Source of the DNA: an uncultured Clostridia bacterium
GTDB taxonomy: Bacteria > Bacillota > Clostridia > Oscillospirales > JAAYOS01
DNA: 64,000 nt
Direction: 5' to 3'
NCBI GenBank assembly: GCA_944387575.1
Contig: CALXFK010000070.1
Span: forward strand, 32,620-96,619
In this document: positions 37,283 to 43,562 of the stretch, piece by piece
Position numbering within the stretch: the stretch's first letter is position 1
Layout of the letters: every line of letters begins with the position of its first letter
The notes under the pieces: generated by a model
The model's input: only the letters and a program-made list of their open reading frames with translations
The model's database searches: none
Told to the model about the DNA's origin: nothing
Made by a program: the position numbers and the translations under genes

Positions 37283-37335
37283 TTCGTCAGACTCCCTTCA
37301 AAAAGTATAAAAACCATTAACTACGTAAATTGATA

Positions 37336-37354
37336 GCGTATCACACCGATACGC
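37336..37354. promoter_or_regulatory. 7-bp-arm palindrome abutting the pgk -10 box
   Basis: GCGTATC-acacc-GATACGC lies immediately downstream, in the pgk orientation, of the TATAAT box. Confidence 0.45.
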
Positions 37355-37383
37355 ATTATAGTACACATTCAGGGTAGTTTCAA
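37355..37383 (-). promoter_or_regulatory. near-consensus sigma-70 promoter of the pgk operon
   Basis: The minus strand reads TTGAAA-N17-TATAAT. Confidence 0.7.
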
Positions 37384-37441
37384 GTGCCATATTGCGATTT
37401 TTTGCGGAATTGGCAGATTTTCTTCTATTCACAAACTTTTC

Positions 37442-37470
37442 AAAAAAACCCGGCGCAAATGAGCCGTTTT
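37442..37470 (-). terminator. weak terminator after trmL
   Basis: The minus strand reads CGGC-tcatttgc-GCCG-GG-TTTTTTT. The stem is short but the U-tract is 7 nt. Confidence 0.45.
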
Positions 37471-37501
37471 AACCATAAATGTCCGCGAGCCGACGTTTTT
37501 T

Positions 37502-38164: not shown

Positions 38165-39016
38165 ATGTACGGCGGAAAGATAAATACACTTGTAGTGAAG
38201 GTAGGAAGCTCCACCCTCACCCACGAGAACGGAAAACTCAATTTCAGGAACATGGAGCTGATAAGCCGTGTCATCTGCGACATCGCCAACACCGGCGTGC
38301 GGGTCGTACTCGTGAGCTCGGGTGCGCAGGCCGCGGGAATGGGCGCGCTCGGTCTTGCCGAGAAACCGACCGAGGTCAAAATGAAGCAGGCGGCCGCCGC
38401 AGTGGGTCAGGTCGCACTAATGTATACATACGACAAGCTGTTCAGCGAGTATGGGCGGAGTATCGGGCAGATACTGCTCAACCGCGCCGACGTCGACAAC
38501 TCGGCGCACCGCGCAAATCTTGTCAGCACCTTTGAGGCGCTGCTCGAGCTCGGCGTTGTCCCGATAGTAAATGAGAACGACAGCGTCACTATCGACGAAC
38601 TCATAATTGGTGACAACGATACACTCAGCGCGGTCGTCGCCGAGCTTGTGCGCGCGGATGCGCTCGTCATGCTCACCGACATAGGCGGTCTATACACCGC
38701 AAACCCGCACACCGACCCGTCCGCTCGCCTTATCCCGGTAGTCGCGGACATCGACGCAGTCGAGAATCTCGCAGGGGGCGCGGGTTCAAATCGCGGCACC
38801 GGCGGAATGGCGACCAAGCTCGCCGCCGCGCGCCTCGCCTGCGCACAGGGCATAGATACCATAGTCGCATCCGGAGCCGACCCGTCGGTGCTCTACGACG
38901 TGGTCGAGGGGCGTCCTGTGGGCACACTCTTCGTCGCGCCGCACTGTCTGAACACCGCCTCCACAGACGTCTGTGACAACACTCAGGAAGAACAGGAAAG
39001 GACGGAGATCTTATGA
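38165..39016 (+). CDS. proB: glutamate 5-kinase (short form without a PUA domain)
   Basis: LVVKVGSSTLT, VLVSSGA and ENDS....E...GDND.LSA are present. It is 283 aa. Confidence 0.92.
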   Translation: MYGGKINTLVVKVGSSTLTHENGKLNFRNMELISRVICDIANTGVRVVLVSSGAQAAGMGALGLAEKPTEVKMKQAAAAVGQVALMYTYDKLFSEYGRSIGQILLNRADVDNSAHRANLVSTFEALLELGVVPIVNENDSVTIDELIIGDNDTLSAVVAELVRADALVMLTDIGGLYTANPHTDPSARLIPVVADIDAVENLAGGAGSNRGTGGMATKLAAARLACAQGIDTIVASGADPSVLYDVVEGRPVGTLFVAPHCLNTASTDVCDNTQEEQERTEIL

Positions 39017-40257
39017 CAGTCGCTAGTCTCGGACTTGCAGCAAAAGGCGCAGCTCCCGCGCTCGCAGCCTCCCCCGTAGGCGTGCGAAACGGCGCGCTCG
39101 AACGGATGGCAGACGCCATTGAAGGCTCCGCCGCCTCCTCCATACTCTCCGCCAATGCTCGTGACATTGAAAGCGCGGAGCAGAACGGGGTCGCGCCACA
39201 CATGCTCGACCGGCTCCGCCTCACCCAGGAGCGCCTTGCTGGCATCTCCGCCGGTATACGCGAGATAGCAGCTATGCCCGACCCGCTCGGCGAGATAACC
39301 GGAATGACCCGCCGCCCCAACGGGCTGCTTATCGGCAAACAGCGAGTGCCGCTCGGTGTCATCGGAGTCATCTTTGAAAGCCGTCCAAACGTCGCCGCCG
39401 ACATCTCCGCGCTCTGCATCAAGTCGGGCAACGCCGTCCTGCTTCGCGGCGGCAAGGAGGCTATAAACTCCAATATCGCAATGACTTGCGCCATCCGCGG
39501 CGCACTCGCAGCCGCAGGTCTCCCCGAGGACGGCGTCTGCCTCGTCACCGACACCTCCCGCGACAGCGCCACCGAACTCATGCGGCTTCGCGGCACGGTC
39601 GACGTGCTAATCCCGCGCGGCGGCAAAGGTCTGATAAGTTCGGTCGTCGAAAATTCGAGCGTCCCAGTTATCGAGACCGGAGCGGGCAACTGCCACGTCT
39701 ACGTGGATTCCGCCGCCGACCTTGACATGGCGGTCGATATACTGTTCAACGCAAAGTGCCAGCGCCCTTCGGTCTGCAACTCCGCTGAGAGCCTGCTTGT
39801 CGCGCGCAGTATCGCCCACGAGTTCCTCCCGCGCGCCTTTGAGCGACTTTCCGAAAAGAACGTCGAATGGCGCGGCTGCCCGGAGACCTGCGCCATTCTC
39901 CCCTCTGCCATACCAGCATCCGAGGAGGACTACTTCACCGAATACAACGATTATATCCTCTCCTGCAAGGTCGTCTCCGGCGTTGACGAGGCTATCGCCC
40001 ACATAAATGCGCACAGCACCGCTCACTCCGAGGCGATAATCACCCGCGACCACCCCACTGCCATGAAGTTTCTCTCCGCAGTCGACTCCGCCGCGGTCTA
40101 CGTCAACGCCTCAACCCGCTTTACCGACGGCGGCGAATTTGGTCTCGGCGCGGAGATAGGCATCTCCACCCAGAAGCTGCACGCGCGCGGTCCGGTCGGG
40201 CTGGACGCGCTCACCTCTTCAAAATACATCATATTTGGAGACGGTCAGGTTCGCTGA
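39013..40257 (+). CDS. proA: glutamate-5-semialdehyde dehydrogenase
   Basis: GVIGVIFESRPNV, LRGGKEA, CNSAESLLV and HSEAIIT are present. It overlaps the proB stop by 4 nt (ATGA junction). Confidence 0.94.
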   Translation: MTVASLGLAAKGAAPALAASPVGVRNGALERMADAIEGSAASSILSANARDIESAEQNGVAPHMLDRLRLTQERLAGISAGIREIAAMPDPLGEITGMTRRPNGLLIGKQRVPLGVIGVIFESRPNVAADISALCIKSGNAVLLRGGKEAINSNIAMTCAIRGALAAAGLPEDGVCLVTDTSRDSATELMRLRGTVDVLIPRGGKGLISSVVENSSVPVIETGAGNCHVYVDSAADLDMAVDILFNAKCQRPSVCNSAESLLVARSIAHEFLPRAFERLSEKNVEWRGCPETCAILPSAIPASEEDYFTEYNDYILSCKVVSGVDEAIAHINAHSTAHSEAIITRDHPTAMKFLSAVDSAAVYVNASTRFTDGGEFGLGAEIGISTQKLHARGPVGLDALTSSKYIIFGDGQVR

Positions 40258-40363
40258 GTTGTTTGTCCCGTTTGAGACGGTTTTGTGCGGTTATTTGACG
40301 TTGTCAACAATTTTTATTAGTGTTTTTTGCACAAACTGCCGATTACTTTTTCGAACTTTATTG

Positions 40364-40392
40364 TTGACAAATGCGTGAGCGAGTGTTATACT
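40364..40392 (+). promoter_or_regulatory. near-consensus sigma-70 promoter heading an ORF-free region
   Basis: TTGACA (40364-40369), then exactly 17 nt, then TATACT (40387-40392). No start codon with an ORF of any length follows. Confidence 0.7.
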
Positions 40393-40396
40393 CTAA

Positions 40397-41402
40397 GCGT
40401 AACAGGAAAGCAGACGGTGCCGGAAATGGCAGAAGCCACTGTTTCCGAAGATTCGGAGAAAAGACCCGGTTACATCCGATATGCTTCCGTTACAGCAGAT
40501 TTTTGGACCAGGTGAAAAACACTGAAAGGACTGATACCAATGTACGAGGTTTTTTCAGTCTGAACCGGATTTTTTGGGAGAGTCCGGGGAGGACTTAAAA
40601 TCGAACAGATTCCCAGAAAATCAAACGGAGGTATGGTCCAGTGACCTGACTACTTCTCCTGCGGATGTACAGTTTCTGTAAATTGCCACAGATCCGTTAA
40701 ATTCGGAGAGAGATTTGATGCGTGTTATGCATTGAGGCTCTATTTGGGTGGATCGGGCAACTTAAATATCCCCGCAGATACCGTTTAAACGCGTAAGGGT
40801 TTTATTTTGAGATTCGAGCGCGTAACTGCAATAAGGTAGTTTGGACCGGGAAGATCAGTTGGTATATTTATACGGTTGAGTTTCTTTGGAGCGACTTTGC
40901 GACATCCGTTGATCAGAGCGCATGTTCGCACAGAGCACTTTCTCATTATGTTCAAGATTCGTATGCGCTTGTTGTACGGATAGTGGCAGAGGGATAATTC
41001 CCCGGTGAGGTAAGTTCGGACAGGAATTGCAGTTGTACCTTGGTTTCGCTGTAAGATGTTACAGGTCATCACATATAGGGTATTTTAAAGGTTCTGTGAT
41101 GTTTGGATTTATAAGGTCGGAAAAGACAGAGCTGATTTGATTGCCGCAGGTTTCCCGCTTAGGACTATGTCCTGTCGATTGTGAGCAGGTTCGCAAAATG
41201 CCATAGCGGATTTGTTAAAAGCAGAAAAGAAAATCCGTAAAACGCAGGTCGTAAGCCTGTTGTGTATGGAAATTTGATTTGCACGAGACAGAAAACGCCA
41301 AGCAAATGCGAAAAACTTGCAAAATACCGAAAGGGACTTTTCAGGCGGGTATAAAATTAAATAATATGTTTGATTCCCGGGCAGACCAAATGGTCTGCCC
41401 GG
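40397..41402 (+). ncRNA. candidate large (~1 kb) structured non-coding RNA, class unassigned
   Basis: No credible ORF exists on either strand. G+C is far lower than in the flanks. The region runs from the promoter above to an 11-bp G+C-rich hairpin at 41377-41402. There are many local hairpins and four CGTAA(G/C) elements. The ends are inferred, not measured. Confidence 0.4.
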
Positions 41403-41466
41403 TTCAGTTCTGCCCATAACTTCCGCTAAGCGGCTTGTTTCACTTTTTTAACTTTCCCCACCTCTA

Positions 41467-41495
41467 TTGACGCACGGGCAAATTGGGAGTAGTAT
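41467..41495 (+). promoter_or_regulatory. candidate promoter of the downstream membrane-protein gene
   Basis: TTGACG-N17-TAGTAT. The -10 box abuts the ATG at 41496, which argues for the ATG at 41529 as the real start. Confidence 0.5.
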
Positions 41496-41528
41496 ATGTG
41501 CAGAACATTTTGCGGGAGACACAATTGC

Positions 41529-42260
41529 ATGAAAAAATTTTTTGGTTTCTGGATAATCTGGGTGATCGTCGGCATCGCCATGCTCGCCTACCCGCTTATC
41601 ACCTCCAGCTTTAGCTTTCTTTCCCACCCTGTGGCGGATAGCGCGGAGGACATAGCGGCGCTCTACGACACCGACGGTGAGTACCGCCCGTTTGCCGAAT
41701 TTCGATTTGAAACTGTAATATTTTCCGGTCTGTATCTCTGCGCCGGTGAGGACGACACCCCGACCGACTGGGTAATGTGTGGCTACATAGACGGTCGCTT
41801 CCTACCCTTCTACGTAAAAGCTACCTCCGTCGACCCTCCGGACGACCAGACCAACGTCTCGTATATTTTGCGCCGTCCGTCAGACGTGAATACCGTCCAC
41901 GACGAGTGGGTGGTCACATCGCTTGTCGACGACATTGTAAACGAGAGTGATTACAGTTACGACGATGCCACCTCATTCTTCACCTCCGAGGTGCTCCAGG
42001 CTGACCGGAACGGCGCGCTCATCCTCACCGCCTGTGCCGGTTGCGGTATTGTTTTCATTGCCGCCGGCATACTTTTCCTCGCGGCACGTATCCGCCGCTC
42101 AAAAAGTTCTCCCGAGGCTGCCGTCTCCACACCGATGGGCGGCGCGGAAGCCGTAGAATTCGGCGACAGCGATACATCGACCACCAGTGCCGACGTCACA
42201 CCCACCGATACCGAAAGCGAAAACGAAGGCGATGACGACTTTGGGCTTCCTCCCCTATAA
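41529..42260 (+). CDS. hypothetical membrane protein (N-terminal TM, second TM near residue 170, acidic tail)
   Basis: The N-terminus is MKKFFGFWIIWVIVGIAMLAYPLI, and the tail is TDTESENEGDDDFGLPPL. I did not recognise a family. Confidence 0.65.
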   Translation: MKKFFGFWIIWVIVGIAMLAYPLITSSFSFLSHPVADSAEDIAALYDTDGEYRPFAEFRFETVIFSGLYLCAGEDDTPTDWVMCGYIDGRFLPFYVKATSVDPPDDQTNVSYILRRPSDVNTVHDEWVVTSLVDDIVNESDYSYDDATSFFTSEVLQADRNGALILTACAGCGIVFIAAGILFLAARIRRSKSSPEAAVSTPMGGAEAVEFGDSDTSTTSADVTPTDTESENEGDDDFGLPPL

Positions 42261-42289: not shown

Positions 42290-42323
42290 GCGGGAAAGAT
42301 ATGTATCTTTCCCGCGCTTTTTT
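42290..42323 (+). terminator. intrinsic terminator
   Basis: GCGGGAAAGATA-tg-TATCTTTCCCGC-gc-TTTTTT. Confidence 0.8.
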
Positions 42324-42751
42324 CACTCTATCGTAGAAATATATATGCCCATCATGCCCGGTATATAGCTTATGCTTATTCCCCGCTTCCCATCGGATAG
42401 GAGCGTTCCGATCGCTACGTAGTCCTGACCCTCTATCTTCTCGTCTATCTCCTCCACGGTCGCGTACCCGGCTTCCTCCAGCGCCGCCATGTATTCGGTG
42501 TACTCGTCGTCGTTCATGTCTGAAACAAATATGCTACAATACCCTCTGTCGGTGTCCACCGTCGCCGAACTCACAGTTCCGGGCGCAGCGGGAACTCCCT
42601 CGGTGTACTCGTTTTCGGGCCACTCCTTCCCGAGCTCGATCACACCGCCCGAATGTATGTCGCCGGCATTTTTCACGGCAGTCCTGTCCGAGCAAGCACT
42701 AACTCCAACCACGAGCAACAATATCAGAACCATAAATATGTATTTCTTCAT
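42323..42751 (-). CDS. lipoprotein of unknown function
   Basis: The ATG at 42751 follows GGAGGAG. The signal peptide and lipobox read MKKYIFMVLILLLVVGVSAC. An ATGA junction overlaps the upstream gene. Confidence 0.75.
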   Translation of the reverse strand: MKKYIFMVLILLLVVGVSACSDRTAVKNAGDIHSGGVIELGKEWPENEYTEGVPAAPGTVSSATVDTDRGYCSIFVSDMNDDEYTEYMAALEEAGYATVEEIDEKIEGQDYVAIGTLLSDGKRGISISYIPGMMGIYISTIE

Positions 42752-43203
42752 CGTCTCCTCCACTTTGCGCAGAATCCGCGAACTGTCTGGATCGCTCCCG
42801 CGACCACAGCCACAATCCCCAGCAGCAGGATAGCGAGCGGTACCTGCCCGTTTCCCTCTACCGCTATATTTGTCATTGCATCCGCCTGCCCGATCACGCC
42901 ATCCGGTACTCCCGCACCTCTCACCATTCCGTAGACCACAAAACAGATCGCAGCAGCGGCAAGAATGCATATGCCGCTCCACCGGGCAGCCACTCCCACA
43001 GATCTGCCCGAGCCGCCAAGCTGCTCTGCCGCGCTTTTCGCAAATTCTTCAGGCGATCCGAGGCGTTCAATGACCTGCGCTTCGGTCTCGCCGTTCTCGA
43101 GAGCAGAGGCAAATATCTCGTTTAAATCGCCTATTACCACCCGCTTAGCCGCTTTCGAAACTCGCAACGCTTTTCTCACCAGCTCTATGTAATTTTCTCT
43201 CAT
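42748..43203 (-). CDS. DUF1700-type membrane protein (PadR-associated)
   Basis: MRENYIELVRKAL....DLNEIF..ALE.GETEAQVIERLGSPEEFAK is present, plus C-terminal TM segments. An ATGA junction overlaps the padR stop. Confidence 0.75.
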   Translation of the reverse strand: MRENYIELVRKALRVSKAAKRVVIGDLNEIFASALENGETEAQVIERLGSPEEFAKSAAEQLGGSGRSVGVAARWSGICILAAAAICFVVYGMVRGAGVPDGVIGQADAMTNIAVEGNGQVPLAILLLGIVAVVAGAIQTVRGFCAKWRRR

Positions 43204-43562
43204 AACTTCTCCTCCATCCGCTGGTAATCCTCTACAAAACCATCCACGCATACGGTGTATTCCCGCCAAAATAAGATCAACTCACGCAGCGTCTCCTCCC
43301 CTTTTTCGGTGAGCGAGTAATATTTCTTTGACCCTCCGTTTGCGGCGGCGGGAGCTATCCGGCACTGCACCAGCCCCGCCTCCTGAAGTCGGTAAAGTAT
43401 CGGATATACCGTGCCCTCCTTCGCGTAACCCAGTACCGCTGCCCCGCTACCGTTCAGCTCGGTTATTATTTCGTATCCATACGTCTCCTTTTTCCCAATG
43501 AGACAGAGCAGTATCATCTCAAGCGAGCCTTTTTTGAACTGCTGCACATATCGGTTCTCCAC
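43200..43562 (-). CDS. PadR family transcriptional regulator
   Basis: SLEMILLCLIGKKETYGYEIITELN......GTVYPILYRLQEAGLV is present. It is 120 aa. Confidence 0.9.
   Translation of the reverse strand: MENRYVQQFKKGSLEMILLCLIGKKETYGYEIITELNGSGAAVLGYAKEGTVYPILYRLQEAGLVQCRIAPAAANGGSKKYYSLTEKGEETLRELILFWREYTVCVDGFVEDYQRMEEKL

Follow-up and report, generated by a model that had tools for sequence, protein, structure and literature searches.

A candidate new family of large structured RNA beside proA in an uncultured Clostridia bacterium

The large non-coding RNAs (ncRNAs) OLE, ROOL, GOLLD, raiA and HEARO are found in anaerobic Firmicutes and Clostridia, have lengths of 0.4–1 kb and their own promoters, and combine many helices with invariant sequence blocks; OLE adjoins oapA. 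Other described systems are smaller. Free-standing riboswitch-like small RNAs (sRNAs; EutX/Rli55 and SreA) and terminator-ended sRNAs consist of a structured 5′ domain followed by a terminator, and switch-containing small RNAs carry a conserved segment with two mutually exclusive pairings. In the leaders of erm, cat and ABC-F genes, a short upstream open reading frame (uORF) preceded by a Shine–Dalgarno (SD) sequence overlaps alternative hairpins, and a second, sequestered SD lies downstream. Here we analyse a gene-free stretch at positions 40258–41528 of a 64-kb window (the whole stretch of DNA analysed, 64,000 nt from an uncultured Clostridia bacterium), which lies between proA and a gene for a small membrane protein and resembles each of these systems in part. 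The explanation that we favour, with moderate confidence, is a functional ncRNA of a new family, encoded on the + strand as an independent gene. The family is new at the level of sequence and structure, and the category to which it belongs, the orphan structured bacterial RNAs, is already known.

The element shares with the large RNAs its own promoter, a length of 0.4–1 kb, many helices and invariant blocks, and, as OLE does beside oapA, it adjoins a small membrane-protein gene in two genomes. Unlike them, it has no covariance-model match, its length varies about 2.5-fold between relatives, and it is documented in four lineages and in none of 185,579 GTDB species genomes, whereas OLE, ROOL, GOLLD, raiA and HEARO have hundreds to thousands of members. 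The OLE-like membrane-gene neighbourhood proposed in a first-pass annotation of the sequence is not general, as the adjacency is not conserved: in one related locus (L010) the RNA is present and the gene absent, and in two others (L013 and L014) it is the RNA that is absent. Two relatives (L003 and L010) repeat the arrangement of a structured 5′ domain with a terminator behind it, and a conserved segment offers two exclusive pairings, as in the sRNA systems; unlike EutX/Rli55 and SreA, the element has no detected known aptamer, and the window lacks a terminator after the core. A short SD-preceded uORF overlapping alternative hairpins, with a second sequestered SD downstream, recalls the erm, cat and ABC-F leaders; unlike in those leaders, only two or three codons follow the second SD, a terminator and a separate promoter come next, and the unit is several times larger. 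Inspection revealed no segment that could act as an anti-terminator by pairing with the terminator.

The stretch is bordered by two genes.

39013–40257, + strand: proA, left border of the gene-free stretch
41529–42260 (ATG at 41529), + strand: next credible gene, for a 243-aa membrane protein (database entry P0121), right border

Between these genes (40258–41528) there is no credible open reading frame (ORF), and the G+C content of 0.44 is the minimum of the window (versus 0.59–0.62). Over 40200–41550 it stays at 0.42–0.45 against about 0.6 in the flanks, making these the lowest-G+C kilobases of the 64 kb, and a G–C skew of +0.10 to +0.28 on the + strand is confined to the same interval. The first-pass annotation was thus right about both the AT shift and the lack of a believable protein gene. 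The four ORFs that it listed and discounted are present (40327–40515, 40371–40598, 40785–41072 and 41109–41417), and they have no match in a Pfam search and no conservation in the homologous locus L011. A HMMER search of 1.84 billion representative proteins with the longest of the four (102 aa, 41109–41417, − strand) returned no true relative; the single match reflects a chance similarity of 34 residues that recurs nine times in one repeat protein.

Relatives of the locus were gathered from homologues of proA and of the membrane protein and by one DNA-pattern scan. Three loci (L001, L002 and L015) belong to the species of the window and are 99% identical to it, and homologues also exist beyond such near-identical strains. 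Locus L003, whose proA is 80% identical, has proA, the same promoter, about 375 nt homologous to window 40397–40740 and a strong terminator. Past this terminator lie a new promoter and a gene start; the leader of this gene resembles the leaders that L013 and L014 have before their membrane-protein homologues, and the gene is probably that of the membrane protein. Locus L010, found in a JGI metagenome by a scan for the core motif, has the same promoter, an RNA of about 375 nt and a strong terminator, and lies between the gene of an unrelated protein (563 aa) and one for a sigma-70 region-2 protein, so that both neighbours differ from those in the window. The sigma-70 region-2 gene, of the extracytoplasmic-function (ECF)-like type, occupies 289–2 on the − strand of that locus and lies about 100 nt past the terminator with no obvious promoter between; read-through control of this gene by the RNA unit is possible. 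In locus L011, where the membrane protein is 65% identical, the 540 nt upstream show homology both to window 40817–41165 and to window 41343–41506, the hairpin and promoter region.

The ends of the putative transcription unit are marked by the following elements.

40327–40335, + strand: upstream box TTGCACAAA, which alignments show to be kept in each of the three promoter-bearing homologues, with differing distances to the −35 element
40364–40392, + strand: sigma-70-type promoter TTGACA-17-TGtTATACT with an extended −10 (score 11/12, TG at 40384–40385)
41377–41402, + strand: G+C-rich terminal hairpin with 11/11 bp paired, probable 3′ end or terminator
41467–41495, + strand: separate promoter of the downstream membrane-protein gene (score 9/12), kept in L011 and L012 and outside the RNA

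The promoter at 40364–40392 had been ranked among the best of the window; six sites in the 64 kb reach 11/12 or more, and among these it alone has the TG extension. L003 and L010 match the window exactly in the −35 element, 17-nt spacing, TG and −10 element. An invariant AAGCGTAACA starts just past the −10 element, at the predicted +1, and the predicted transcription start is at about 40397–40400. The upstream box TTGCACAAA may be a regulator site or an UP-like element. An inverted repeat, TTGACgttGTCAA, is also present upstream of the promoter, at 40300–40312, and an element, GAATTTGTTACAnAATGACG, is common to L003 and L010 and absent from the window.

At the other end, the 11-bp hairpin is fully paired, as annotated, and folds at −23.7 kcal/mol alone (26 nt) and at −25.9 kcal/mol (z-score −5.7) in a 66-nt context. 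In L011, a hairpin of different stem sequence stands at the same position and is followed by UUUUGCUUUUUU, forming a proper terminator. Strong intrinsic terminators end the unit in L003, L010 and L011 (z-scores −4.1, −5.3 and −6.5, respectively). At 40735–40815, the counterpart of the L003 and L010 terminator, none is predicted in the window and the sequence folds like its shuffles (z-score +1.16); between 40601 and 41338 there is no promoter-like site. Taken together, the missing terminator near 40800 and the missing internal promoter make a single transcript of about 1.0 kb likely, running from about 40397–40400 to the hairpin at 41377–41402, that is, to about 41405.

Sequence conservation exceeds that of neighbouring synonymous sites. 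The RNA is 66% identical between the window and L003, while the four-fold synonymous sites of proA are 49% identical (102/207; chance about 39%). Between the window and L011 the RNA is 65% identical and the four-fold sites of the membrane-protein gene are 36% identical (29/80; chance about 32%); chance identity in both cases is an estimate from third-position base composition. L003 and L010 share 85% identity in the RNA, and the mean column identity of the core is 81%. Because synonymous sites are near-randomised while the non-coding nucleotides stay alignable, the comparison points to purifying selection on several hundred non-coding nucleotides. Every homologue, moreover, has a G+C content below that of its neighbouring genes and an excess of G over C.

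This selection does not appear to act on a protein. Indels between the homologues are of arbitrary lengths and not multiples of three, and in six frames no ORF longer than seven codons is shared by the three core sequences. Within the block at 41041–41070, all four substitutions fall at codon positions 1 or 2 of the only shared frame, and two of the four are compensatory within a hairpin. Concatenated six-frame translations of the three core sequences, a query covering the 5′ domain and meant to pick up ORFs miscalled over homologous loci, gave no match among 5.8 billion proteins. On this evidence from sequence, the region is judged to be non-coding.

The part shared by the window, L003 and L010 is a 5′ domain of about 290 nt, composed of the following elements.

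40397–40680, + strand: 5′ domain or family core, shared with L003 and L010; contains helix P1, a YCCGA hairpin, helix P3, a pseudoknot and helix P4
40399–40411 with 40483–40493, + strand: helix P1, from the minimum-free-energy fold and a pair check in three sequences; closes a variable insert
40444–40457, + strand: hairpin UCCGA-agau-UCGGA, inside P1
40524–40563, + strand: near-invariant 40-nt block GAAAGGACUGAUaCCAAUGUACGAGGUuuuUUCAGUCUGA, identical at 36/40 positions across three sequences
40557–40572 with 40580–40595, + strand: helix P3, with loop UUUGGGA at 40573–40579
40611–40617, + strand: pseudoknot 3′ strand UCCCAGA, pairing with the P3 loop at 40573–40579 (7/7 pairs in three sequences)
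40627–40661, + strand: helix P4, with GGAGG 40627–40631 paired to UCUCC 40655–40659; encloses the invariant UGACCUG at 40642–40648

The core aligns with its counterparts in L003 and L010 with nhmmer E values of 2e-20 to 3e-21. Its covariance model matches only the 40397–40680 copy in the window, and no second core copy was found in the window or the other loci (nhmmer and covariance model R1). In P1, GUAAC (40399–40403) and GGAA.GC (40405–40411) pair with GCUUCC-GUUAC (40483–40493), the register in the window being assigned by hand; a U-A pair is replaced by U-G in L010. The enclosed hairpin at 40444–40457 has a U-A base pair in the window that is C-G in L003 and L010.

The near-invariant block can pair in two ways. 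In one, GGACUGA (40528–40534) pairs with UCAGUCU (40555–40561); in the other, AGUCUGA is donated to P3, and the positions involved exclude the first pairing. The block also reads as an SD (AAGGA) followed after 9 nt by a seven-codon ORF (40540–40563) encoding MYEV(F/A)SV-stop, which is kept in three sequences. P3 itself pairs at 13/16 positions in the window and at 15/15 in both L003 and L010. Across its alignment 93% of cells are paired, versus 26–56% when the partner strand is slid; four pairs have changed on both sides with pairing kept, and four of seven changed pairs remain paired versus 0.375 expected by chance. The pseudoknot between the P3 loop and 40611–40617, in which one U-A becomes U-G among the sequences, was found by inspection and not by a prediction program. 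The 3′ strand of P4 was likewise aligned by hand, as MAFFT misplaces it. P4 can also be read as an SD followed after 9 nt by GUG ACC UGA (40641–40649), encoding M-T-stop in the window and M-T-C-stop in L003 and L010, and overall three to five SD-like runs lie within a stretch of 130 nt.

The fold of the region is strand-specific, with −342 kcal/mol on the + strand versus −257 kcal/mol on the − strand. In 200-nt windows on the + strand, z-scores are −3.3, −2.9 and −2.4 over 40300–40700 and −4.15 at 41200–41399, a segment containing the terminal hairpin; the − strand gives weaker values, and flanking coding sequence gives values near 0. Many of the conserved pairs are G-U, which on the opposite strand would give C-A. 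As a control, alignment columns were shuffled within gap and conservation classes and refolded with RNAalifold (200 shuffles), and the consensus energies of all three alignments lie below those of 200/200 shuffles.

Middle domain (alignment A7): −40.5 kcal/mol versus shuffle mean −25.4 and best shuffle −35.9; z-score −3.4; compensatory pairs 8 versus 11.9
Whole core (alignment A4): −48.3 kcal/mol versus shuffle mean −33.6 and best shuffle −43.8; z-score −3.6; compensatory pairs 20 versus 16.0
Core centre (alignment A6): −32.1 kcal/mol versus shuffle mean −20.0 and best shuffle −31.4; z-score −3.7; compensatory pairs 7 versus 5.6

Counts of compensatory pairs were dropped as evidence after this control. 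The modelled case for conserved structure is built on consensus energy, strand asymmetry and long helices that persist through sequence change. The local hairpins listed in the first-pass annotation all fold, and most of them are weak (−2.5 to −8 kcal/mol).

Downstream of the core, the window contains further parts.

40683–40815, + strand: poorly conserved linker, with two degenerate CC(R)CAG(A/G)U modules (40683–40695 and about 40772–40790) and a U-rich run near 40800
40817–41165, + strand: middle domain of about 350 nt, shared with L011 (nhmmer E value 2e-10)
40824–40830 with 41028–41034, and 40839–40850 with 41000–41021, + strand: long-range helices closing the middle domain
41049–41064, + strand: hairpin CUGUAA-gaug-UUACAG, in which a U-A becomes C-G between the window and L011
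41139–41162, + strand: motif GAUUGCCGCAGGUUUCCCGCUUAG, shared with the L003 RNA, where it lies in the 3′ domain (17 identical nt), and with L011
41166–41376, + strand: A-rich 3′ tail, a gap in L011

The consensus fold of the middle domain has 57 pairs, all of which form in both the window and L011. The motif, GAUnUGCCRCAGGUUUCC(C)GC (20–24 nt), occurs in the 3′ domain of the short L003 RNA, at window 41139–41162 and at L011 328–350, and each pairwise local alignment beats 200/200 shuffles. Since the motif is common to these three sequences, the short and long forms of the RNA appear to share both ends, with inserted domains between them in the window; being shared between the two halves, it also supports their reading as one molecule. 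The two similar modules annotated near 40688 and 40775 exist and are like a third module, at 41142; it is this third one that relatives keep. No stable hairpin precedes the U-run of the linker, and alignment of the linker with the 3′ domain of L003 is not significant. The A-rich tail is, judging by its gap in L011, either lineage-specific or fast-evolving. The sequence CGTAA(G/C) occurs at 40398, 40792, 40821 and 41250, four times versus 0.56 expected (P about 0.004 by shuffling), so the annotated repeat is real and enriched. Its reading as GNRA tetraloops was rejected: the first copy (40398) is the only one conserved in relatives, and it sits in a helix strand and not in a loop. Of the proposed structured RNA of about 1 kb, the promoter, the + strand folding and the selection bear out the RNA, and the most widely shared part is about 375 nt long, the full kilobase being deduced from the missing terminator near 40800 and the motif common to both halves.

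No known family accounts for the region. A cmscan of the whole window with Rfam 15 (4227 models) returned nothing at gathering score, as the first-pass annotation had anticipated in failing to place the sequence. At E ≤10 in 40150–41600 and E ≤5 in L003, L010 and L011 there were only chance matches, to unrelated sRNA, snoRNA and miRNA models (E values 0.6–8.5; 14–24 bits versus gathering scores of 39–110). OLE (RF01071), GOLLD, ROOL, raiA, HEARO (omega RNA) and Cobalamin are excluded at this sensitivity, as are group II intron, RNase P, 6S and SRP RNAs, and ARAGORN found no transfer RNA or transfer-messenger RNA in the whole window. A literature search for newly described large RNAs gave only OLE, ROOL and GOLLD.

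Several functional identities were also considered and set aside. A type I toxin–antitoxin system would have a conserved small hydrophobic toxin, and ORFs common to the three core sequences are at most seven codons long. A decayed protein gene was rejected because Pfam gave nothing for the four ORFs, protein searches with the 102-aa ORF and with the six-frame core gave no real match, and, where the element is missing from relatives, a short gap or an unrelated gene takes its place. Mobile-element RNAs (group II intron, IS605 omega RNA, IS110 bridge RNA and retron) have no Rfam match here. No terminal repeats were found around the region and no transposase or integrase lies nearby, the neighbours being proBA, the membrane-protein gene and genes for PadR and HAAS-domain proteins. 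As a CsrA/RsmA sponge the region is unconvincing: GGA occurs 13 times versus about 8 expected, and TCC is equally enriched, which reflects helix content. Seed pairing in trans was dismissed as well, the complementarity of the invariant block within the window being at most 11 nt, which is at chance level.

The region could instead hold two adjacent ncRNAs, one of about 410 nt (40397 to about 40810) like those of L003 and L010 and one of about 590 nt (about 40815–41405) like that of L011. The L003 and L010 RNAs terminate right after the core, the similarity to L011 begins at 40817, a U-run, GGGUUUUAUUUUG, lies at 40797–40809, and GCGUAAC is present at both 40397 and 40820. However, no stable hairpin precedes the U-run (z-score +1.16), the interval 40601–41338 holds no promoter-like site from which a second RNA could start, GCGUAAC is not kept at the L011 start, and the motif at 41139–41162, in the second half, belongs to the short RNA of L003. 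We therefore regard two RNAs as unlikely, while taking the arrangement seriously. The 40-nt block invites a different explanation, a cis-acting leader or attenuator in which ribosome stalling on the seven-codon uORF (40540–40563), with the second SD (GGAGG, 40627) sequestered by P4, controls termination or read-through. Both pairings, GGACUGA:UCAGUCU and AGUCUGA:GGACU, are indeed kept in three sequences together with the uORF and its SD (AAGGA at 9-nt spacing), one of the four variable block positions is a synonymous third position (GUU to GUG), and the L010 terminator is followed by the sigma-70 region-2 gene without an obvious promoter of its own. Yet the downstream genes differ (the membrane protein in the window and probably in L003, a sigma factor in L010), and the window, L003 and L011 all have, past the terminator, a conserved promoter belonging to the next gene. 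The second SD precedes only two or three codons. Apart from that third position, no synonymous site of the uORF varies, against a divergence of 34% over the entire RNA, which argues for constraint at the RNA level, and the additional conserved structure (290 nt, with 600 nt more in the window) far exceeds the needs of known peptide attenuators; an attenuator thus seems improbable.

The possibility that there is no functional RNA, and that the region is an AT-rich spacer with a DNA-level role (regulator sites or nucleoid structure) or a decaying gene or mobile element, is given still less credence. It would fit the low G+C content, the patchy presence (absence from L004, L013 and L014), the different insertion contexts, the assemblies that break inside the region and the conserved TTGCACAAA box upstream. 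It is at odds with hundreds of conserved nucleotides past a conserved promoter where synonymous sites are saturated, with strand-specific folding and conserved terminators, and with ORFs that have no protein relatives, as well as with the lack of terminal repeats, transposase or integrase and of any match in the phage, plasmid and IMG/VR searches.

Several points weigh against a single functional RNA of about 1.0 kb. The terminal hairpin in the window has a poor U-tract (UUCAGUUCUG), the single-sequence z-scores over 40700–41200 are weak (−0.0 to −1.5), and the L011 contig begins at a domain boundary, the equivalent of 40817, so that its sequence covers the middle domain onward. The transcript itself is deduced from sequence alone. 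Covarying pairs, to which the first-pass annotation had looked for support, add nothing: with RNAalifold, shuffled alignments give as many double changes as real ones, and covariation has no statistical power because only two to three sequences are available per part. The element is also missing from close relatives. In L004, whose proA is 80% identical, another gene follows 58 nt after proA, and in L013 and L014 the membrane-protein gene lies behind short unrelated spacers; because of these absences, the element would be either dispensable or mobile. Finally, action in trans is suggested by context only, because the flanking genes vary, the downstream genes have their own promoters and the unit has its own terminator.

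For the favoured reading, an independent ncRNA gene, the following mechanism can be proposed. The strong extended −10 promoter would start a + strand RNA at about 40397–40400 that runs about 1.0 kb to the hairpin at 41377–41402. This RNA would be modular, with a core of about 290 nt, a weak linker, a domain of about 350 nt closed by long-range helices, the shared motif, an A-rich tail and the terminal hairpin, and the shorter version of about 375 nt in relatives would consist of core, motif and terminator. Its functional centre would be the near-invariant 40-nt block together with P3, the pseudoknot and P4. The block may serve as a platform for a protein or, because SD-like runs occur in the block and P4, for the small ribosomal subunit, or it may be a two-state switch. 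More tentatively, and with less assurance than the ncRNA gene itself, we suggest that this could be an undescribed modular class of large RNA restricted to an unsampled Oscillospiraceae-like lineage, in which inserted domains can extend a core of about 0.37 kb to about 1 kb and a 40-nt centre toggles two helices beside a loop pseudoknot. It might then be the scaffold of a ribonucleoprotein or a switch that senses a ligand, the ribosome or a protein, unrelated to OLE, ROOL, GOLLD, raiA and riboswitches.

The known distribution is narrow. An exact-pattern scan for the pair of core motifs found none in the 185,579 GTDB species genomes, and the core motif occurred at one locus, L010, in JGI metagenomes. 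The motif of the middle domain gave a single 25-nt match in the GTDB genomes (L016 7429–7453, Chloroflexi metagenome-assembled genome JAKAKJ010000050.1), which was rejected as chance: it lies within a long ORF, has no flanking similarity and breaks the hairpin. Pattern scans of IMG/VR for the core and the middle domain returned no exact match, and blastn of the region in phage and plasmid collections returned no match. By these sequence searches the RNA is documented in four uncultured gut- or rumen-type Clostridia lineages. The source lineage is, judging from proA, very poorly sampled: among 5.8 billion proteins, proA relatives form one near-identical cluster and two at 80% identity, the rest being at ≤66%, and the nearest named relatives, in Oscillospiraceae, 'Clostridiales' and Pseudoflavonifractor, are 63–64% identical. 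In relatives at 65% identity, clpC or an ABC transporter gene follows proA. Independent metagenome assemblies break within the region: L002 ends at 40603 and L015, from the same sample, starts at 40662, the L001 contig begins at 41041, and that of L011 exactly at the position corresponding to 40817. These breaks could reflect strain heterogeneity, reduced coverage of DNA that is AT-rich and structured, or chance, given that the contigs are short.

The 243-aa protein encoded downstream has hydrophobic N- and C-terminal segments and an acidic tail. Only six clusters of relatives were found among 5.8 billion proteins, and the protein is lineage-specific like the RNA, yet its linkage to the RNA is not strict. 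This protein with two transmembrane segments belongs to no Pfam family. Just past its gene lies a convergent cluster on the − strand (42323–43562). The remaining neighbouring genes are as follows.

38165–39016, + strand: proB, 5′ of proA
42323–42982, − strand: unassigned 219-aa ORF
42748–43269, − strand: HAAS-domain protein
43200–43562, − strand: PadR-family regulator

A second dip in G+C content (0.42) occurs at 37283–37501, in the spacer of about 220 nt between the PGK and SpoU-methylase genes. This spacer contains an 11/12 promoter-like site on the − strand (37383) and resembles an ordinary intergenic promoter region.

Large structured bacterial RNAs without an assigned function are few, and each of them has raised new questions of RNA biochemistry. 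The very narrow distribution of the family proposed here limits both its comparative power and its general importance. Within that range, the variation in length from 375 nt to about 1 kb would amount to a natural dissection of the essential parts of the RNA.

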